A DNA stretch of 64,000 nucleotides from Candidatus Bathyarchaeia archaeon (GCA_050012755.1 JBEKGO010000022.1:14885-78884); one strand, 5' to 3'; positions 8,610 to 41,527 are shown, numbered from the stretch's first letter. Numbers and translations: made by a program. Notes: a model not told the origin generated them from the letters alone.

Positions 8610-8909
8610 TTAGCCAACGGCTAGTTTTCCAAATTTTCCAACGTTAAGTTGAAGTTCGCCTTTAAAGCTGGTTATGTATCCGTTGTCAATTTTAACATTG
8701 TCACCGACGTTGACTTGGTCAATTTGCTCATTCCATAAAGTCAGTTTTATGCTACCTGACTCATCGGCAACCACAGCATCAACTATTCTGTAAGTTTCAT
8801 CTTTAAAACGTGATTTGACTTCTCGGGGGTCGCCTTTTTCAACAACTTTCGCTTCAACGCTAACCCGTTTCATTCCGTTCTGTAAATCTTTAATTGGTGT
8901 CACACTCAC
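8610..8909 (-). CDS. ssb: Single OB-fold single-stranded DNA-binding protein (SSB/RPA-like)
   Basis: IKDL...VADESGSIKLTLWNEQI...VGDNVKIDNGY...LNVGKFG. GTG start at 8909 follows an AGGTGA SD (ORF track starts at 8918). Confidence 0.9.
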   Translation of the reverse strand: MSVTPIKDLQNGMKRVSVEAKVVEKGDPREVKSRFKDETYRIVDAVVADESGSIKLTLWNEQIDQVNVGDNVKIDNGYITSFKGELQLNVGKFGKLAVG

Positions 8910-8971
8910 ACTTATCACCTAAATTTGATTTTTCCCTCTCAGGGTTTTCACTTGCAAAAGTGCCCTTCAAT

Positions 8972-8986
8972 CATATAAATCTTGCT
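8972..8986 (-). promoter_or_regulatory. BRE/TATA promoter of ssb
   Basis: Minus strand AGCAAGA-TTTATATG about 63-77 bp upstream of the start. Confidence 0.6.
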
Positions 8987-9151
8987 AACTTCGGTTCTGT
9001 CAACTCTTCGGTTATTTGTTTTCCATGTAAACTTTCGGTTACGTTCTGTTACCCTCTCCGACTGTTCCATCTTCATGTTTCTTTTCGTCTGCTAATTCAT
9101 GAAAGTAATAAATACTGAAACTAAACCATATTTCATAATTTGGAAATATCA

Positions 9152-9526
9152 ATGCCGAAATGTGAATTATGCGGAAAAGAAATACACTATCCCGAATTTC
9201 CATTCCGATGCCCTTACTGCCAAAAAACATTCTGCGCCGAACATCGAATACCTGAAAGTCACGCATGTACAAATACACCTTTTTTAGCGCCTACTCTAAC
9301 TTCGACAAAAACATGGGAACCATTTATGTGCCCAAATTGCGAAGCTCAAGAGAAAGATTGCGACATCACATATTATGATGCGGAAATAGTTACTTTCAAG
9401 TGCCGAGAATGTGGTAATAAATGGACTCAAAAAAAGGGCAATTATGAACATGTTGAATTAAGAGAGCATTTAGATAAGAAAGAAAATGAAACTGAAAAAC
9501 CGAAAAAGAGATTTCATTTCTTTTGA
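9152..9526 (+). CDS. AN1-type zinc finger plus zinc ribbon protein (transposon cargo)
   Basis: CELCG...PFRCPYCQKTFCAEHRIPESHAC fits the AN1 consensus; second CPNC...CRECG ribbon. ATG at 9152 (ORF track starts at 9140). Confidence 0.85.
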   Translation: MPKCELCGKEIHYPEFPFRCPYCQKTFCAEHRIPESHACTNTPFLAPTLTSTKTWEPFMCPNCEAQEKDCDITYYDAEIVTFKCRECGNKWTQKKGNYEHVELREHLDKKENETEKPKKRFHFF

Positions 9527-10650
9527 GTTGTTTTGGAGGAGCACGCGTTTTGAATGAGCGTTAGCCATTTGTTTTTTCCTTCTATTGCTATTCCACATGC
9601 TTCGCTCGGAGTTTTTCCGTCTAATGCTTCATGCGGTCTAATGAAGTTATGATAAAGTTGGCAACCTTGAAGAATTGCTGTATCAGTTGTCTTTAGTCCT
9701 CGCATAGTCTTTTCTCTATCTCGGATTTCTCCGTTCATGCGTTCCATTTTGTTATTATTGTGATTGCCTTTTAAAGTGATATGCCTAATGTGTTTGGTTC
9801 TAGGTCCTTTCATTGTCCACCACTCTTTGCCATATGCAACATGGTAAGAGTGTAGTCCATCAGTTATGAAAGTCATGGGTTTTTTTCCCATTAGTTCTTG
9901 AGACATACGTAATAGATTTCTTGCGTCATGTTTGTCTTTGGTGTCAGCTACTTCTTGGGCTATCCAGAAACGTGTTTGGTCATCCATCATTGAAAAGAGA
10001 TATTTCATGTTGCCTTTTACCTTTAGATAAATTTCGTCTGCTCTCCAAGTATCGCCAACATTAGGAACCAGTTTATCAGCGTAATTCTTCATTAAAGCAA
10101 CATATTTTTTAATCCAATTAAAAACCGTTTGATGCGAAACTTCCACTCCTAAAAGTTTGAGTGACTCCATTGTATTTCTTAAGCTCTCTCCAGAGAAATA
10201 AAGTTGCATAGCAGAGGTTATCGCTTGAGGATTATGCTTCATCCGTTCAAAACCAAGATTCACACTAAAGGTTTTACCGCAATCTTCACATAAGAACCGT
10301 TGAATATTTCCACTCTTGTTTTTTCTAACACTAAATTTTTTGATGTTTGCTGAGTGGCAAAAAGTGCAAGATGAAACATTAACCTCTTGAATGACAACAT
10401 TCTTTCTGACCTCTGCCTTCAGTTTTTGGCTAAAGTCTACTGCAAAAATATGTTTACACTTGACATGGCGATACATAGCATCTGGGCAATCACACATCAA
10501 TTCACCGTTGACTCTATTAACGGTATATTCGCCATTGTTGGATTGTGATTTGACAATATAGAGGCAATCATCGATTTGTTTTACTTGACCGTTTAATTGT
10601 GCGATTGTTTGACCTCGTTCTTGTCTTGTGGTTGTTAGTTGGTTTGTCAT
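9514..10650 (-). CDS. IS6-family (IS240-like) DDE transposase with N-terminal SWIM and Zn-ribbon domains
   Basis: CDCPD...CKH (SWIM), CTFC...CEDC, HTH SHQTVFNWIKKY, WRADE / ITDGL / NNKMER triad, HNFIRPHEAL..KTP. Confidence 0.92.
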   Translation of the reverse strand: MTNQLTTTRQERGQTIAQLNGQVKQIDDCLYIVKSQSNNGEYTVNRVNGELMCDCPDAMYRHVKCKHIFAVDFSQKLKAEVRKNVVIQEVNVSSCTFCHSANIKKFSVRKNKSGNIQRFLCEDCGKTFSVNLGFERMKHNPQAITSAMQLYFSGESLRNTMESLKLLGVEVSHQTVFNWIKKYVALMKNYADKLVPNVGDTWRADEIYLKVKGNMKYLFSMMDDQTRFWIAQEVADTKDKHDARNLLRMSQELMGKKPMTFITDGLHSYHVAYGKEWWTMKGPRTKHIRHITLKGNHNNNKMERMNGEIRDREKTMRGLKTTDTAILQGCQLYHNFIRPHEALDGKTPSEACGIAIEGKNKWLTLIQNACSSKTTQKK

Positions 10651-10750
10651 TTTAGGCACCTAAAACATAATTAGGTACCTAATAATATAAGCATTTCGGT
10701 ACCTAAAATTATATAAAGGTCTAATATCTATTAGCCTAATAGGTGCCTAA
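10651..10750. promoter_or_regulatory. Divergent promoter with four copies of palindromic operator TTAGGTACCTAA
   Basis: TTAGGCACCTAA (10652-10663), TTAGGTACCTAA (10671-10682), TTCGGTACCTAA (10695-10706), ATAGGTGCCTAA (10739-10750), around TATA-like elements on both strands. Confidence 0.8.
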
Positions 10751-10752
10751 AA

Positions 10753-10917
10753 ATGAGGTTACAGAAGCAACTATCAAGAAAAGTGGATAAAATCGAATAC
10801 CCAAAATATGTTGTGACAATTCCACCGAAACAAATTCAAGAAGCAGGGTGGAAAGAGGGAATAGAACTTATAGCCGTTGTAGAAGACGGAAAAATTATTT
10901 TAAGACCTAAACAATGA
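10753..10917 (+). CDS. AbrB/MazE/SpoVT-family small DNA-binding protein (54 aa, not in ORF track)
   Basis: MRLQKQLSRKVDKIEYPKYVVTIPPKQIQEAGWKEGIELIAVVEDGKIILRPKQ shows the vTIP...GW..G..l...V.dg.I.l.P swapped-hairpin pattern. Confidence 0.85.
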   Translation: MRLQKQLSRKVDKIEYPKYVVTIPPKQIQEAGWKEGIELIAVVEDGKIILRPKQ

Positions 10918-11679
10918 ATGTAGATGTTCATAAACTGCCTTAACTTCTTTATCAACGTCAGCCATTATTGTGCTTAAAGGAACCCCTATTATTTCTTTGG
11001 TTTGTCCTCCATCTGGAATACACCATATTTGAGGCAAGCCCTTTCCTACACCAACATTTTTTGTAATTTCATCTGTCTCTACGTATTTAATTGCGAATGC
11101 ACCAATTTTTGCGGATTGCACCATATTCATCGATTTATTCCAACATTTTCGGAAAATCTCAACGATGGGATTATACCCTATGAATACTGCTTCAGGCACT
11201 TCGACAGGTAAACAGTTAGTCGATTCTAAGTAGTACAGTTTGGCTAGATCATCTCTAGCGTTAACAGCAATTAAAATTTGAAGAGCACATTCATCATCGT
11301 TTTCAAACGCAACTGAATATCGTTTTTTCATATCTGTAAGTAATTCTACACAATCTTGCTTAAAGTCAACAACAGAATATTCAAAATAAGGTGGGTTGGG
11401 GGCATCAGGATTATTTCCGAATGTATCTTCTCTATCTTTTTTTAATTTAGCGTTTTGATAAGTAATCCAAGATAAACGGCGATTTACATTTTGAGGAAGA
11501 ATTGTTAGAAATTCTTCAAAGAGATTTTCCAAACCTGCTGCTCCAAAAATTGCCCATGGGATATTTTCACATTTCCTAACTTTCTCGGCATTATGTCCAA
11601 CAAATTCGCCAGATCTAACTAATCTATCGCTAACAAGTACTACGCCGTCAGTGCATCGTGCACCGAAAATTAAGGTCAT
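10900..11679 (-). CDS. Proteasome-subunit-like Ntn hydrolase (transposon cargo)
   Basis: Probable start MTLIFGARCTDGVVLVSDRLV...EKV with Thr1, Asp and Lys equivalents; GAAG; late helix AKIGAFAIKYVE...VGVG. ORF track extends to 11787. Confidence 0.75.
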   Translation of the reverse strand: MTLIFGARCTDGVVLVSDRLVRSGEFVGHNAEKVRKCENIPWAIFGAAGLENLFEEFLTILPQNVNRRLSWITYQNAKLKKDREDTFGNNPDAPNPPYFEYSVVDFKQDCVELLTDMKKRYSVAFENDDECALQILIAVNARDDLAKLYYLESTNCLPVEVPEAVFIGYNPIVEIFRKCWNKSMNMVQSAKIGAFAIKYVETDEITKNVGVGKGLPQIWCIPDGGQTKEIIGVPLSTIMADVDKEVKAVYEHLHSLFRS

Positions 11680-11935
11680 GTGTTTATTTCCTCGCAGTCT
11701 TTTCCATTGCTCTTTTAGGTACCGATTACGTTGATTCTTGTATAAAGCATTTTGCTCTAGCAAGTTTAACCGACTCTTTACAGCCAAAAATTAAGCCTCC
11801 TTTTTACCGAAGACTTGACAGAACCCTAACTTCGGCACAGTTACCTCTACGGTTGCTGTTTTTCCCAAAATCTTTTGGAAACTTTCGGTTGCTGGAGGAA
11901 TTCCAGTTGGGCAAATAATAAATCTGAAGTGACAC

Positions 11936-12814
11936 ATGTTAATGAACATGGATACTCGCAAGATTGCACAAGCAATATTGGATGCAATCGGTCACATCGG
12001 TTCAATCTTATGGCTTTTGATATTGCTAGGTGTGATCCCCGAACCAATGTTCCGAGGAGTTAACGTCATGCAAGAATACTCCCTAGTCTTCATTTTTCTG
12101 GCTCTGTTGATATTCTTTCTCTCTGCCCTTTGGTTGGGTTGGCAGATTCACACACGATATGTAAGGATTCCAGCATTCTCTCGAAAGGCAATTCCAAATG
12201 TGGATGAAAGATTTCATAATCTGAAATTTCATTTTTCTCGGAAAACGGACACAGCAAAGGGTTCTCATGAACCGCCTAATTTCGTGGTGTATCAGGAAAT
12301 TTACAAAGACACAAAAGAAGCCTATCCGATTCCTAATTATCTAGAACCTTATTTGAAAGCCTTTGAGACTAATTGGCAATCATACGATGGTATTAACAAA
12401 ATAATGGAATATTTTGAAATTAACAAAATTCATCTGAACATCAAAGATCCTAGTTATGAAGATTTGGGTCTAGTGTTAGGTTGGGATGGATTACTCCATC
12501 TACCTGATTTGGACTGGGATATATTATTGAAGAAAATTGGCGGAAAAAAAATCAAAGGCGCAGTTATCTTCAATTTTCACTCGGTACGCTATATTTTTAG
12601 TTCCAAACCGTTTCTCACACCTAACCGACTTCTAATTATAGAAAGAGAAGCATTTTGGGCTCCTCATCACGATATAGACTTGCTTTTTAGTCACAAAATA
12701 GAGCATAGAGATTGGACTAAAATCAATTATAAGCTCTGGTGTTTGATTCATCATTACCATTATCATCCAGAGTACTATGATGAGGAAAAATTGCTTGAAC
12801 TCTTAAAAGATTAG
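11936..12814 (+). CDS. Hypothetical membrane-anchored protein (2 N-terminal TM helices), cargo of element B
   Basis: 292-aa ORF with two hydrophobic helices then a soluble domain; no family recognised. Confidence 0.7.
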   Translation: MLMNMDTRKIAQAILDAIGHIGSILWLLILLGVIPEPMFRGVNVMQEYSLVFIFLALLIFFLSALWLGWQIHTRYVRIPAFSRKAIPNVDERFHNLKFHFSRKTDTAKGSHEPPNFVVYQEIYKDTKEAYPIPNYLEPYLKAFETNWQSYDGINKIMEYFEINKIHLNIKDPSYEDLGLVLGWDGLLHLPDLDWDILLKKIGGKKIKGAVIFNFHSVRYIFSSKPFLTPNRLLIIEREAFWAPHHDIDLLFSHKIEHRDWTKINYKLWCLIHHYHYHPEYYDEEKLLELLKD

Positions 12815-12975
12815 TAAACTGATTGCTGTCTTTTGTTTGCACTTGCGTTTTGTATTAGGGTTTTCCACTTGTTTTGTCCTTCAATGGCTATCCCACATGC
12901 TTCACTTGGAGTTTTCCGTCTAAGGCTTCATACGGTCTAATGTAATTTTGGAACAATTTGTAACCTTGAAGAACC
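12811..12975 (-). pseudogene. IS6 transposase C-terminal remnant with frameshift
   Basis: VLQGYKLFQNYIRPYEALDGK/TPSEACGIAIEGQNKWKTLIQNAS... parallels the C-terminus of the 9514-10650 transposase; 1-nt deletion near 12912-12916. Confidence 0.88.
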
Positions 12976-13168
12976 AAATAGAAGCGACAAGAGTTATTGA
13001 AGAGTTCGAATCGGAAAAGACTCAAAAAAGTTTTTCAGACTTTCCACTTTAGTTTGCTATCGACCGATTTTTCACAGAGAAAATCGTCAACGGACAACTT
13101 CACAGAACCCTAACTTTCTGTGAGCTGAAGCAAAAAAGAAAAAATTTAAAAAAAGACGAATTGTGGGG

Positions 13169-14458
13169 CTAAACAAAACCCACGAACAGCACTAAGACAA
13201 ACCACGTAACTGCTACGCTAACAGCTGCAATCAAAATTCGTTTCATCATTGAAAACTCTGGTTGAAGTGTTCCAACAATTATTGTGCAGAGAGCGCCTAA
13301 CCAAACGTAGGATACTAAGAACATCGCTTCAACGACAAAGTCGAAGCCTGAGGTTACTGCCACTATATTGTTGAGAACAGCTTGGGACTGCGCTGTATAA
13401 GTGACTGCTGCTTGGACAGGCACATATATTGCCCCATAAGGATTAGACGTAACCCCAAGTGAGACGTCAAATGGATAATAAACTGTGGGCAAGGTAAATG
13501 CTACCGCAATGTTTACTACTGATCGAATGACCATAACAAACAAAGCAAAAACTACTGCAACAAAAAGGGGTTTCCAAGTGATATTGGCTTTTAACCCTTT
13601 GAAGAAGAGGTAAATTAGCCCTGTTAACAACAGCCAACTAAAAATGAACTGTAGAGAGAAAGCCTCCAAGAAGGATAGTAGAGCATTGGGTCCATAGGTT
13701 TGAATGAAAGTTTGATATTCCCCATGGAAGAATAAAGCGCCAATACGAATGACGAAATTTGAGCCAGATGGATAATTGAAGTCTAACTTTAATGCTGTAA
13801 TATTACCCCAAGAAGGTGCTCCGCCAACGGCCCAGCCTTGAGCAGATGGACCTACTGGAATTGTTAGGTTGTTCCACTGGTTAATGTCTGAAGAGTTTGA
13901 CATAAGTGAAGTTAAGTCATAAGTGTAATAGTTAGAGTCAGCAACTGAGTAAAGAGTAATAGTTGCGCTTGTGGGCACGATTTGAGGTTGAACCTGTTTT
14001 AACGTCATTGATAAGTTCTCAAAGCCGCCAGCAGCGCAGCTAACATTGAAAGCATTGCTTAAAGCAGCGGAAACGGCGCTAGCGTTGTTGGCATCAATTT
14101 CCAAGCTGCTATTTCCAAATAAACTGTAGTTTCCTATAATCGCTGGAACGTAAACGCTGTAGTTGAAGTAGTCATCAAAATTGTTGCTAATCGTTACGCC
14201 AGCACTGGCTCTCCATAATGTTGAGTTTGGTTCAGAGGACATCGCTGCTGTTGCGTTGATATAATCTGATAATTGACCGATCGCAGGTGATGTGTTTTCG
14301 GTGTATGTTTTTGAGAACTGTGCATATGCATATCCCATTTGTAAGCCTATGAAAAGAAGCAGAATAATTATGGCACCCAGATACTTTGGATTTTCAATTA
14401 TCTTCTTGAATGCTGTTGCTGGTGCATAAATTACTCTTGCAATGTCATCTAGAATCAA
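13169..14458 (-). CDS. Yip1-domain membrane protein with a large inserted extracellular domain
   Basis: N-terminal VIYAPATAFKKI motif, one TM, about 200-aa Asn/Ser-rich beta domain with many NxS/T sites, then 4 TMs. Confidence 0.7.
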   Translation of the reverse strand: MILDDIARVIYAPATAFKKIIENPKYLGAIIILLLFIGLQMGYAYAQFSKTYTENTSPAIGQLSDYINATAAMSSEPNSTLWRASAGVTISNNFDDYFNYSVYVPAIIGNYSLFGNSSLEIDANNASAVSAALSNAFNVSCAAGGFENLSMTLKQVQPQIVPTSATITLYSVADSNYYTYDLTSLMSNSSDINQWNNLTIPVGPSAQGWAVGGAPSWGNITALKLDFNYPSGSNFVIRIGALFFHGEYQTFIQTYGPNALLSFLEAFSLQFIFSWLLLTGLIYLFFKGLKANITWKPLFVAVVFALFVMVIRSVVNIAVAFTLPTVYYPFDVSLGVTSNPYGAIYVPVQAAVTYTAQSQAVLNNIVAVTSGFDFVVEAMFLVSYVWLGALCTIIVGTLQPEFSMMKRILIAAVSVAVTWFVLVLFVGFV

Positions 14459-40588: not shown

Positions 40589-41527
40589 TTAATCAGGCAA
40601 CTCAAGGTTTAATTGTTTTTTAAGTGTCTTGTAGCGATTGCGCACTGTTACTTCTGTTACGCCAGCAGCTTCAGCGATGTCTTTCTGAGTCTTTTTCTCG
40701 CCATTCTGCAAACAAGCAATGTAGAGGGCAGCAGCAGCTAATCCCATGGGGTCTTTTCCGGCAGCAGCACGTTTACGTCTTGCTTCCCTAAGAATTTGGA
40801 TGGCTGCACCTTGAGTTTTTCCTGAAATCCCGGTTTTCTCTGCAATTTTGGATACGTAAGTCAACGGGTCAGCGATGGGCATATGCACATCAAGTTCGCG
40901 TAACAGTAGCCTGTAGCATCTTGCAACGTCTTTTTTGTCAACGAGACTGGCTTCAGCTATTTCCCGTAGTGTGCGTGGTGTTCCGCTTCCGCGGCAAGCT
41001 GCATAAAGCGCAGCAGCAGCGATAGCAGCGATTGATCTTCCGCGAACTAAACCTTTGTCCAATGCTTTACGATAAACAACAGCGGCTTTCTCTTTAATTG
41101 GCGGAGGAATGTAGACCTTGTCTGAAAGACGGTCAAGTTCCGCCATGGCTTGAGCCAAATTGCGGTCAATAGATGAGTGGACTCTACTGCGTATTTGCCA
41201 TTTCCTAAGGCGCCACATTTGAAGTCGTGTGGACAGGGGCAGTTTTCTTCCGAATGCATCTCGGTCGACTTGGCTAATGGCTGTAGATAATCCTTTGTCA
41301 TGAACTGAGTAGGAGGTTGGAACACCAACTCGGCTTCTTGACGCTTTCTCTTCTTGAGTGAACGCACGCCATTCTGGTCCTTTGTCCATCATTTGCTCGT
41401 ATAGGACCAAGCCACAGTCGCCGCATACGGTTTCGCCTGTGTCATAATCGTGAACTAAATTTTCGCTGCCGCACTCTGCACACTTATCGGATAAGCGCGC
41501 CTGTGTTTTAACTTCTTTTTTGCTCAA
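40589..41527 (-). CDS. tfb: Transcription initiation factor IIB
   Basis: CAECGS...CGDCG ribbon, GPEWRAF, two cyclin repeats, GVTEVTVRNRYK. Confidence 0.98.
   Translation of the reverse strand: MSKKEVKTQARLSDKCAECGSENLVHDYDTGETVCGDCGLVLYEQMMDKGPEWRAFTQEEKASRSRVGVPTSYSVHDKGLSTAISQVDRDAFGRKLPLSTRLQMWRLRKWQIRSRVHSSIDRNLAQAMAELDRLSDKVYIPPPIKEKAAVVYRKALDKGLVRGRSIAAIAAAALYAACRGSGTPRTLREIAEASLVDKKDVARCYRLLLRELDVHMPIADPLTYVSKIAEKTGISGKTQGAAIQILREARRKRAAAGKDPMGLAAAALYIACLQNGEKKTQKDIAEAAGVTEVTVRNRYKTLKKQLNLELPD

Follow-up and report, generated by a model that had tools for sequence, protein, structure and literature searches.

Insertion sequences (IS) of the IS6 family are described, in the available part of the family review, as elements of 789-880 bp that encode 213-254 aa in a single open reading frame (ORF), show no pronounced target preference and are bounded by terminal inverted repeats (TIRs) of 15-20 bp with GG tips and conserved cTGTt / caaa motifs; the same part names ISDsp3 as the sole passenger-carrying member, and reports clades h and i of Clostridia in which the transposase bears an N-terminal CxxC zinc-finger extension (PMC7986276). 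For archaea, passenger-carrying DNA transposons were given as undetected in 2019, in the part of that account available here (PMC6563490). The present analysis concerns a 64,000-nt stretch of DNA from a Candidatus Bathyarchaeia archaeon (GCA_050012755.1 JBEKGO010000022.1:14885-78884; the whole stretch is hereafter 'the window', and positions are counted from its first letter), in which two cargo-carrying units of IS6 type, element A and unit B, are stacked beside the promoter of an ssb-like gene. The region is probably (at roughly 70%) a pile of whole transposons built by position-guided, promoter-side insertion, and not a cassette array.

The stack reads CTAACTTC-[A 8993-11825]-CTAACTTC-[B 11834-13109]-CTAACTTT, by direct reading and by repeat search alike, with copies of an 8-bp target-site duplication at 8985-8992, at 11826-11833 (the spacer between A and B, also seen in contigs of other sequencing runs) and at 13110-13117, the last matching at seven of eight bases. 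The ssb-like OB-fold gene (8610-8918, minus strand, 102 aa; Pfam Ssb-like_OB, 4.7e-15) is transcribed away from the stack, and its orthologues, at 80-96% identity, lie beside Yip1 in 26 of 30 loci of relatives. A TATA-like box, TTTATATG on the ssb strand (8972-8979), is located ∼50 nt upstream of the ssb start, followed by five A-rich bases (8980-8984) that directly adjoin the duplicated 8-mer, the order on the ssb side being 8-mer, CAAGA, TTTATATG; position, and the retention of CAATCATATAAATCTTG in the empty sites of the genus, suggest that 8972-8984 (minus strand) acts as the core of the ssb promoter. At the far side of the stack, a Yip1-like membrane protein gene (13169-14458, minus strand; Pfam Yip1, 5.4e-4, under the cut-off), with orthologues in 56 of 61 genus genomes, turns its stop toward B.

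Element A (8993-11825, minus strand) is an intact cargo-carrying transposon of 2833 bp, with TIRs matching at 19 of 20 positions (arms GGTTCTGTCAACTCTTCGGT / GGTTCTGTCAAGTCTTCGGT) between 8-mers identical at 8/8. Its left end (8993-9040, plus strand) combines the terminal repeat GGTTCTGTCAACTCTTCGGT with a subterminal repeat TGTAAACTTTCGGTT, a bipartite architecture common to 24 aligned ends, and its right terminal repeat (11806-11825, minus strand) was located by repeat search; both ends are detected by end model R1, and the terminal 20-mer has only its two sites in the window at up to three mismatches, with 0 expected from 100 shuffles. Unit B (11834-13109, minus strand) is a decayed, non-autonomous relative without a full transposase, bounded by ends of two subtypes. 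Its left end, of the GTTACCTCT subtype with a mutated tip (GGCACAGT), is 75% identical to that of A over 40 nt and is not detected by R1; its right end (13059-13109, minus strand; terminal and subterminal repeat, R1 26.1 bits, E 4e-6) is of the GTGAAGTTGTC subtype and is 85% identical to the right end of A. The two ends of B match each other at ∼11 of 20 positions; where an element is intact and its duplications match, the figure is 15 of 20 or higher.

A transposase 3' remnant of 129 bp persists in B (12845-12973, minus strand; 82-83% identity to A 9545-9674, in register; tblastn residues 345-379), in the same position and orientation as the corresponding part of A. Each unit also carries a different plus-strand cargo gene between its left end and the transposase: in A, a zf-AN1 protein of 128 aa convergent with the transposase (9140-9526; Pfam zf-AN1, 9.4e-10), and in B, a 292-aa ORF (11936-12814) with predicted N-terminal hydrophobic stretches and no match in Pfam or NCBIfam. 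The parts common to A and B are the ends and the ∼130 bp of transposase remnant. The preliminary description of this DNA, which had reported a stack with three 8-mers beside ssb, repeats of 19/20 in A, diverged ends and a transposase remnant in B, differing cargo genes in the same slot, and two distinct relatives at one base pair with the newer nearest ssb, is borne out in each of these particulars; A appears to be the newcomer because it is intact between identical 8-mers, whereas B is decayed and its far 8-mer is one base off.

The arrangement was also recovered in contigs of the Logan collection, which span A, the 8-bp spacer and B with 0-1 differences in three sequencing runs (X1, X4 and X6; X1 is possibly the source sample) and marginally in a fourth (X5, with 30 letters within B), while runs X1 and X4 span the right end of B into the flank; as contigs of other runs span these junctions, the stack is not an assembly artefact. 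Among the Logan pieces listed, none crosses the ssb-A junction at 8992/8993. Evidence of an empty site in these runs is too weak for a call: X1, X4 and X6 yielded contigs that link 8985 to 13245 across unknown letters, with no more than 19-30 letters on the shorter side, and these may come from co-resident relatives with another allele. A circular form was not seen in the contigs of the sequencing runs.

The same base pair beside ssb has been used repeatedly (genomes compared are denoted G and loci L, with G000 the genome of the window). In 25 of 30 Yip1 loci of relatives, ssb lies 99-274 bp from Yip1, and in at least 24 of these 25 intervals the conserved CAATCATATAAATCTTG is succeeded by one CTAACTnn-like 8-mer only (for example CTAACTTC in G028 and CTAACTGC in G003), which is the empty site that had been predicted. 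A pattern search of 120 genus genomes identified the junction of CTTG, CTAACTnn and an element end in five, namely G000, G020, G036, G063 and G135 (the last with a degenerate tip), giving seven units at the ssb base pair: A, B, two in G036, and one each in G020, G063 and G135. G036 holds a second stack, CTAACTGT-unit-CTAACTTT-unit-CTAACTTT; G020 a single element of 3 kb that has a full transposase, lies in the opposite orientation to A and the G063 unit, and is flanked by CTAACTCG on either side; G063 an 892-bp derivative; and G135, which belongs to a distant clade, a solo left end of ∼70 bp. Common to the seven are the ends and 44-194 bp of transposase remnant (the transposase gene itself in A and G020); their cargo is unrelated, and the last bases of the 8-mer vary (TC, CG, GT, TT, AA).

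In a tree of Yip1 and HMG-CoA synthase, the four occupied genomes that it includes fall in a seven-genome subclade together with the empty-site genomes G018, G009 and G019, with G018 in a trio with G000 and G036 (99% support) and G009 sister to G063 (99%). A single ancestral insertion does not explain this pattern, in which empty genomes are nested among occupied ones, cargo is unrelated and orientations differ; the comparison points to a minimum of five independent insertions at the ssb base pair, and probably to seven. In a further genome, G071, almost this position upstream of the ssb TATA box is taken by an unrelated, frameshifted IS whose transposase is of the DDE_Tnp_1 type (L092, ∼90-1300), with a family-end-like CTGTAAAGTTCTC string further in.

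Inverted repeats and duplications served to mark off elements across the family, and four rounds of this gave perfect 8/8 duplications at 10 loci, 2 copies, 13 of 15 pairs and 17 of 24 loci (one a duplicate locus). No matching duplication was seen in L073. Of these ∼40 insertions no two have the same 8-mer save orthologous copies, and since duplications elsewhere are unrelated, the signal is not the 8-mer itself. A TATA-like box close to the insertion is instead recurrent: under a criterion of at least 6/8 match to TTTAWATA starting 1-7 nt beyond the duplication, 15 of 25 sites of a discovery set pass, against a null of 0.23 from random intergenic-like genome positions, and with the criterion then fixed, 31 of 57 non-redundant single flanks, drawn from 60 new ends of a genus scan, pass against 0.12 expected (P=2e-14). 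At a stringency of at least 7/8, the count is 9 of 57 flanks against 0.017 expected. The motif peaks at offsets 3-7 (∼6.4 per offset, compared with 1.2 farther out) and is at background by offset 9, and a matrix over 127 unselected flanks has signal at +2 (A), at +4 (T) and from +6 to +11. Both copies on contigs labelled Nitrososphaerales have their box at offset 5.

A second housekeeping promoter, that of psmB (proteasome-beta), has been entered at one base pair by three subtypes, in G018, G015 and G003 (the G003 copy being shared with G025), with a different 8-mer each time: TTGAAGCG, TAAAAGCG and GCTGGGCG. Taken together, these sequence comparisons indicate that targeting is by position beside a TATA-like box and not by the 8-bp sequence. 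That the boxes are working promoters is a reading well founded for ssb and psmB only.

Stacking is likewise a property of the family, and homologous elements do not lack it: junctions of a right end, 8 bp and a left end occur 11 times in 10 loci, comprising the window, G019:C75 (L048), the ssb site of G036 (L056), G025:C147 (L060), G003 (L149), L184, L187, L188, L200 and L205. L187 is a triple with two junctions and TTGAATAT three times in a row; the outer stack ends of L060 and L149 were not located, and L067, where the spacer is 6 bp, was left out of the count. The spacer equals the outer duplication in all eight checkable loci, and the transposase-bearing end unit has a TATA-like box on its free side in five of seven stacks under the fixed criterion (the window, L048, L184, L188 and L200). 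In the omitted case, two family ends face each other across the spacer AATTTG (L067 2822-2829, G025:C77).

A sequence of events that would produce such loci can be proposed. A staggered cut would leave the duplicated 8 bp ending ∼5 bp upstream of the TATA-like box, where the B recognition element (BRE) would have its upstream edge. After insertion, the 8-mer copy beside the TATA box would retain this geometry, and because it does so the site would stay a target. The next element would enter between the promoter and the earlier element, duplicating the same 8 bp and yielding 8mer-new-8mer-old-8mer, with the newest unit nearest the promoter and older units pushed outward; in the window, the ancestor or ancestors of B would have arrived first and A later. 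Old units would decay by internal deletion, and would probably also recombine with stacked neighbours to give hybrids such as B. The mismatched ends of B suggest that it is probably a hybrid of two older elements, and the proximal unit in G036 and L066 similarly combine mismatched ends with matching 8-mers, as might be expected of stacks collapsed by deletion or recombination between neighbours. If B is such a collapsed stack, there would have been at least three arrivals in the lineage of the window, and a way to recombine cargo. The order of events and the collapse origin of B are both inferred from the state of the ends and 8-mers. In a search for an intact B-like element, the cargo of B gave matches in just 2 of 119 other genus genomes, weak or partial ones, and none in the fetched loci.

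The box could be read directly, through DNA sequence, shape or bendability, or via TBP/TFB on the promoter. A more detailed proposal, in which the zinc-finger-extended transposase is guided by the TBP/TFB pre-initiation complex or by its distortion of DNA, and stacks recombine so that cargo is reshuffled, is put forward tentatively and is on balance rather doubtful. The genome of the window has three TFB and two TBP genes (G000:C3, C50, C25, C6), with one of the TFB genes in the window itself (40589-41527), which would matter should paralogous promoter factors guide insertion.

Several points weigh against position-guided insertion or its generality. The TATA consensus TTTAWATA was taken from general knowledge, and the offset window was set after the discovery set had been viewed, which leaves only the second test clean; even there, a single flank of the 57 shares homology with a discovery site. 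The criterion is missed by roughly half of the single flanks and by 10 of the 25 discovery sites, although about half is near the ceiling because only one flank per element should face a box. Flanks with the motif are no more often followed by an outward gene nearby than those without (11 of 25 against 21 of 46), a second comparison of gene orientation gave no separation (11 of 21 against 19 of 45), and the overall excess of outward over inward ORFs (49 against 22 of 71) comes from crude ORF calls. The A-richness between 8-mer and box bears only a loose likeness to the upstream regions of 1248 long ORFs in the genome, 206 of them with a box. Among the stacks, the box of L205 (CTTATAAG) fails the criterion and the right flank of L187 lacks one, and in G036 the proximal unit lies between unlike 8-mers (GT/TT) and the distal unit between like ones, which misfits a simple age order. 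Given the DDE_Tnp_1 element in G071, moreover, the ssb spot may be fragile or permissive in general, and not one that this transposase reads.

Stacks could alternatively arise from attraction between elements, the transposase synapsing with a resident element end and inserting beside it, an explanation judged improbable here. It draws on the frequency of stacks, with 11 junctions, on piles of same-orientation ends (L059, L060, L057 and L058), and on the targeting of IS26-type elements beside a resident copy, which is documented in the available part of the IS6 review (PMC7986276). However, separate lineages took insertions into a still empty ssb site (G020 and G063, with opposite orientations, and G135, of a distant clade), single unstacked elements also adjoin TATA-like boxes, and the targeted integration of IS26 adds no duplication, in contrast to the repeated 8-mer at every junction of the present stacks. 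Site targeting and attraction to resident ends could also act together.

That no targeting is involved, with random insertion followed by survival only in the handful of harmless bases that separate the Yip1 terminator from the ssb promoter, or a fragile or permissive spot, seems very unlikely. Short intergenic spacers (99-274 bp) and the unrelated IS at nearly the same place in G071 are in keeping with it; seven units at one base pair, though tens of bases are free, and the like pattern at psmB are not, and selection for harmlessness does not predict a sharp genome-wide motif peak at offsets 3-7. Recognition of CTAACTTY itself, as an att-like site, deserves little credence: CTAACT precedes all seven ssb units, but every empty site has this conserved sequence beside the ssb promoter, unrelated 8-mers accompany ∼40 other insertions, and the three at psmB differ. 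The site-specific targeting proposed in the preliminary description is thus retained as targeting and given up as recognition of CTAACTTY.

Equally little can be said for an integron-like platform, in which cargo cassettes would be swapped by site-specific recombination at the 8-bp site. A differing cargo gene in the same slot of each unit had invited this comparison, yet no tyrosine or serine recombinase domain was found among the eight ORFs of the region that were scanned, the units are bounded by transposon inverted repeats and duplications and not by attC-like sites, and cargo lies on both sides of the transposase, with 108 of 160 ORFs being singletons. With no integrase or attC-like sites, two ends to each unit and no conserved accessory gene, the idea of an integron-like capture array does not stand; of swappable cargo, what survives is an inference from units with mismatched ends between matching 8-mers, and not cassette swapping. 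Finally, it can be practically dismissed that B arose from A by partial tandem duplication, or that the layout is an artefact of assembly, as the ends and transposase 3' piece that the two share in register are only 75-85% identical, their cargo is unrelated, contigs of several runs span both the A-B and the B-flank junctions, and like architecture exists in other genomes.

The elements A and B and their relatives constitute a cargo-carrying IS6-family clade of Bathyarchaeia. Homologues of the A transposase were identified in 32 of 60 relatives searched (own genome excluded), metagenome-assembled genomes labelled Candidatus Bathyarchaeota/Bathyarchaeia; contigs with the labels Nitrososphaerales and Methanomethyliaceae hold remoter copies (53-62% identity). 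Transposase profiles, GG-tipped terminal repeats and an 8-bp duplication are those of IS6, but the compact transposase-only form of ∼0.8 kb is not found: delimited elements measure 2434-6051 bp, and extra DNA with ORFs lies on both sides of the transposase in 36 of 36 (73-3939 bp on the 3' side and 137-3700 bp on the 5' side). Transposition in the IS6 family goes by way of replicative cointegrates that host recombination resolves. The 24 aligned ends give a terminal repeat consensus of GGTTCTGT(n)AAgTCTtCG, with invariant positions G1 G2 C5 T6 G7 T8 A10, and a subterminal repeat, CTGTAAAnnTTCG, ∼35 bp further in. Recent activity of the family is shown by a pair of identical 2434-bp copies that occupy separate sites of the same genome.

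The cargo is diverse. Clustering of the 160 non-transposase ORFs of the 36 elements placed none in more than six elements, and a conserved accessory 'targeting' gene, sought in this way, was not found. Pfam names 26 families among 117 cargo ORFs, mostly defence-like or toxin-antitoxin-like, including N6 and N4 methylases, Eco57I/MmeI-type enzymes and parts of type I restriction-modification systems, alongside HEPN, SocA/Panacea, NYN, ParB-like, GNAT and Fic domains. In the G019 stack, the older unit bears a gene of the Fic/DOC family (L048 8996-9595; Pfam, 8e-12).

Family transposases are 370-400 aa long with two extra zinc modules. That of A (9514-10659, minus strand, 381 aa) has an IS6-type DDE core at residues 137-341 behind two N-terminal zinc modules, and passes NCBIfam NF033587 transpos_IS6 narrowly (126.2 bits, cut-off 125; profile 1-202 on residues 137-341) and Pfam DDE_Tnp_IS240 clearly (2.8e-18, 66.8 bits against a cut-off of 27). 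The module CxxC..CxxC at residues 98-127 matches an IS1/IS1595-type domain slightly under the cut-off; the other, CxCx9CxH at residues 56-70, is not called by Pfam and has a pattern that we take to resemble SWIM. Across 30 homologues, ten residues do not vary: C56 C58 C68 H70 C98 C101 C124 D208 D267 E306.

Between the transposase start and the next gene of A lies a cluster of five TTAGGTACCTAA-type palindromes (10649-10752; repeat search). The gene that follows encodes an AbrB/MazE-fold protein of 54 aa, either cargo or regulator (10753-10917, plus strand; Pfam MazE_antitoxin, 1.1e-7). The second cargo gene is a proteasome-beta-like ORF of 295 aa (10900-11787, minus strand; Pfam Proteasome, 4.4e-5, residues 38-75; no NCBIfam match), whose probable start is the Met-Thr at 11679 (codon 37), as for an N-terminal threonine hydrolase, and a sixth palindrome (11713-11725) is situated upstream of this probable start. 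By their placement, the palindromes look like an operator set for an element-encoded repressor. Element A thus carries a proteasome-beta-like gene and, separately, the promoter of the host proteasome-beta gene is a recurrent landing site (G018, G015, G003/G025; L218, L219, L220).

Derivatives of several kinds accompany the full elements. Decayed copies in relatives often retain the last 30-100 transposase codons beside the cargo-side end, with ∼38 such hits against ∼10 N-terminal-only pieces (examples are the window at 12845-12973 and G000:C7:31279-31632), which is either a detection bias or a recurrent deletion pattern. Transposase-free end pairs were identified at G000:C18:43285-43809 (525 bp), L065 5278-5850 (573 bp), L064 5559-6663 (1105 bp) and L066 5841-6984 (1144 bp), with perfect 8-bp duplications around the three in relatives (L065, L064 and L066); these are derivatives resembling miniature inverted-repeat transposable elements, or small cargo-only ones, presumably moved in trans. 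Four to six same-orientation family ends within 0.7-1.4 kb at L059 5667-7012 (G070:C1) and L060 6938-7598 (G025:C147) look like graveyards of repeated insertion and truncation. Full stacked elements in L184 and L205 lie on contigs labelled bacterial (Saccharibacteria, Limnocylindrales), probably through mis-binning and possibly through transfer.

An archaeal clade in which cargo is the rule fills the gap noted in 2019 for passenger-carrying DNA transposons, and departs from the picture of IS6 elements as textbook minimal insertion sequences. The position rule, if true, would represent target choice linked to a transcription signal by a prokaryotic DDE transposon, connecting archaeal transcription initiation to transposition; it would explain how conserved housekeeping promoters (ssb, psmB) survive the piling up of several mobile elements beside them, suggests how cargo modules could recombine, and offers a possible route to position-defined insertion tools for archaea. 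If stacks recombine as in the more detailed proposal, stacking would be the means by which the family reshuffles cargo (defence, methylase, toxin-antitoxin-like) in Bathyarchaeia and related archaea.

Among known systems, the integron is defined by the IntI tyrosine recombinase, acting with attI on cassettes bounded by attC; no recombinase was found among the eight ORFs scanned here, and TIRs with 8-bp duplications bound the units. Elements abutting each other's ends are also produced by the inverted-repeat targeting of IS30 and IS911, in which end-to-end synapsis leaves spacers of 2-3 bp, whereas the present spacers amount to a complete 8-bp duplication and insertion also takes place at empty sites. 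Arrays of IS26 and its translocatable units, formed in the targeted conservative mode, resemble the present stacks in that successive arrivals build direct-repeat cargo arrays at one place; those arrays, however, share one IS copy between segments and gain no new duplication, while A and B, unlike the parts of an IS26-type array or pseudo-compound transposon, each have two ends of their own and are separated by a further copy of the duplicated 8-mer.

Tn7-like elements form tandem arrays at attTn7 through target reuse. Casposons, at ef-2 or tRNA genes, likewise reuse a target and stand head to tail with the duplication repeated, as described in the available part of PMC6563490. Both use one conserved gene, via Cas1 or a TnsD selector, whereas here many promoters are entered, and an element-encoded target selector as in Tn7 is not apparent, no ORF cluster occurring in more than six of 36 elements. 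Against the IS6/IS26 group as far as the available part of the family review covers it (IS26, IS257, IS6100 and archaeal clades Ai-Aiv), the DDE profiles, ends starting in GG with CTGT and AAA, and the 8-bp duplication are alike; the Bathyarchaeia elements differ in their size of 2.4-6 kb, two-sided cargo, 370-400-aa transposase, bipartite ends and TATA-like adjacency. In the same portion of the review, ISDsp3 and the 'tIS' (IS with passenger genes) provide the precedent for an IS6 element with a passenger, although in contrast to ISDsp3 cargo is universal here (36 of 36 elements), and clades h and i that for an N-terminal zinc extension, from which the present transposases differ by their archaeal hosts and added CxCx9CxH module.

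Ty3, among other retroelements, integrates at a fixed distance from TFIIIB/TBP-bound yeast promoters, with a proven protein tether, and archaeal TBP/TFB are homologues of TBP/Brf1. The likeness is that position is set by the transcription-initiation region and not by the duplicated sequence: a motif peak 3-7 nt away, and two promoters each hit at one base pair, are what a fixed distance from the TATA site would give. Ty3, however, is a eukaryotic retrotransposon with an integrase. Full-text literature searches, and the available part of PMC13343696, yielded nothing on IS6 elements of archaea with cargo or on targeting linked to TATA boxes, although deposited, undescribed relatives are possible. 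What would be new relative to described IS6 members is chiefly the targeting rule, with the stack in the window as its visible consequence.

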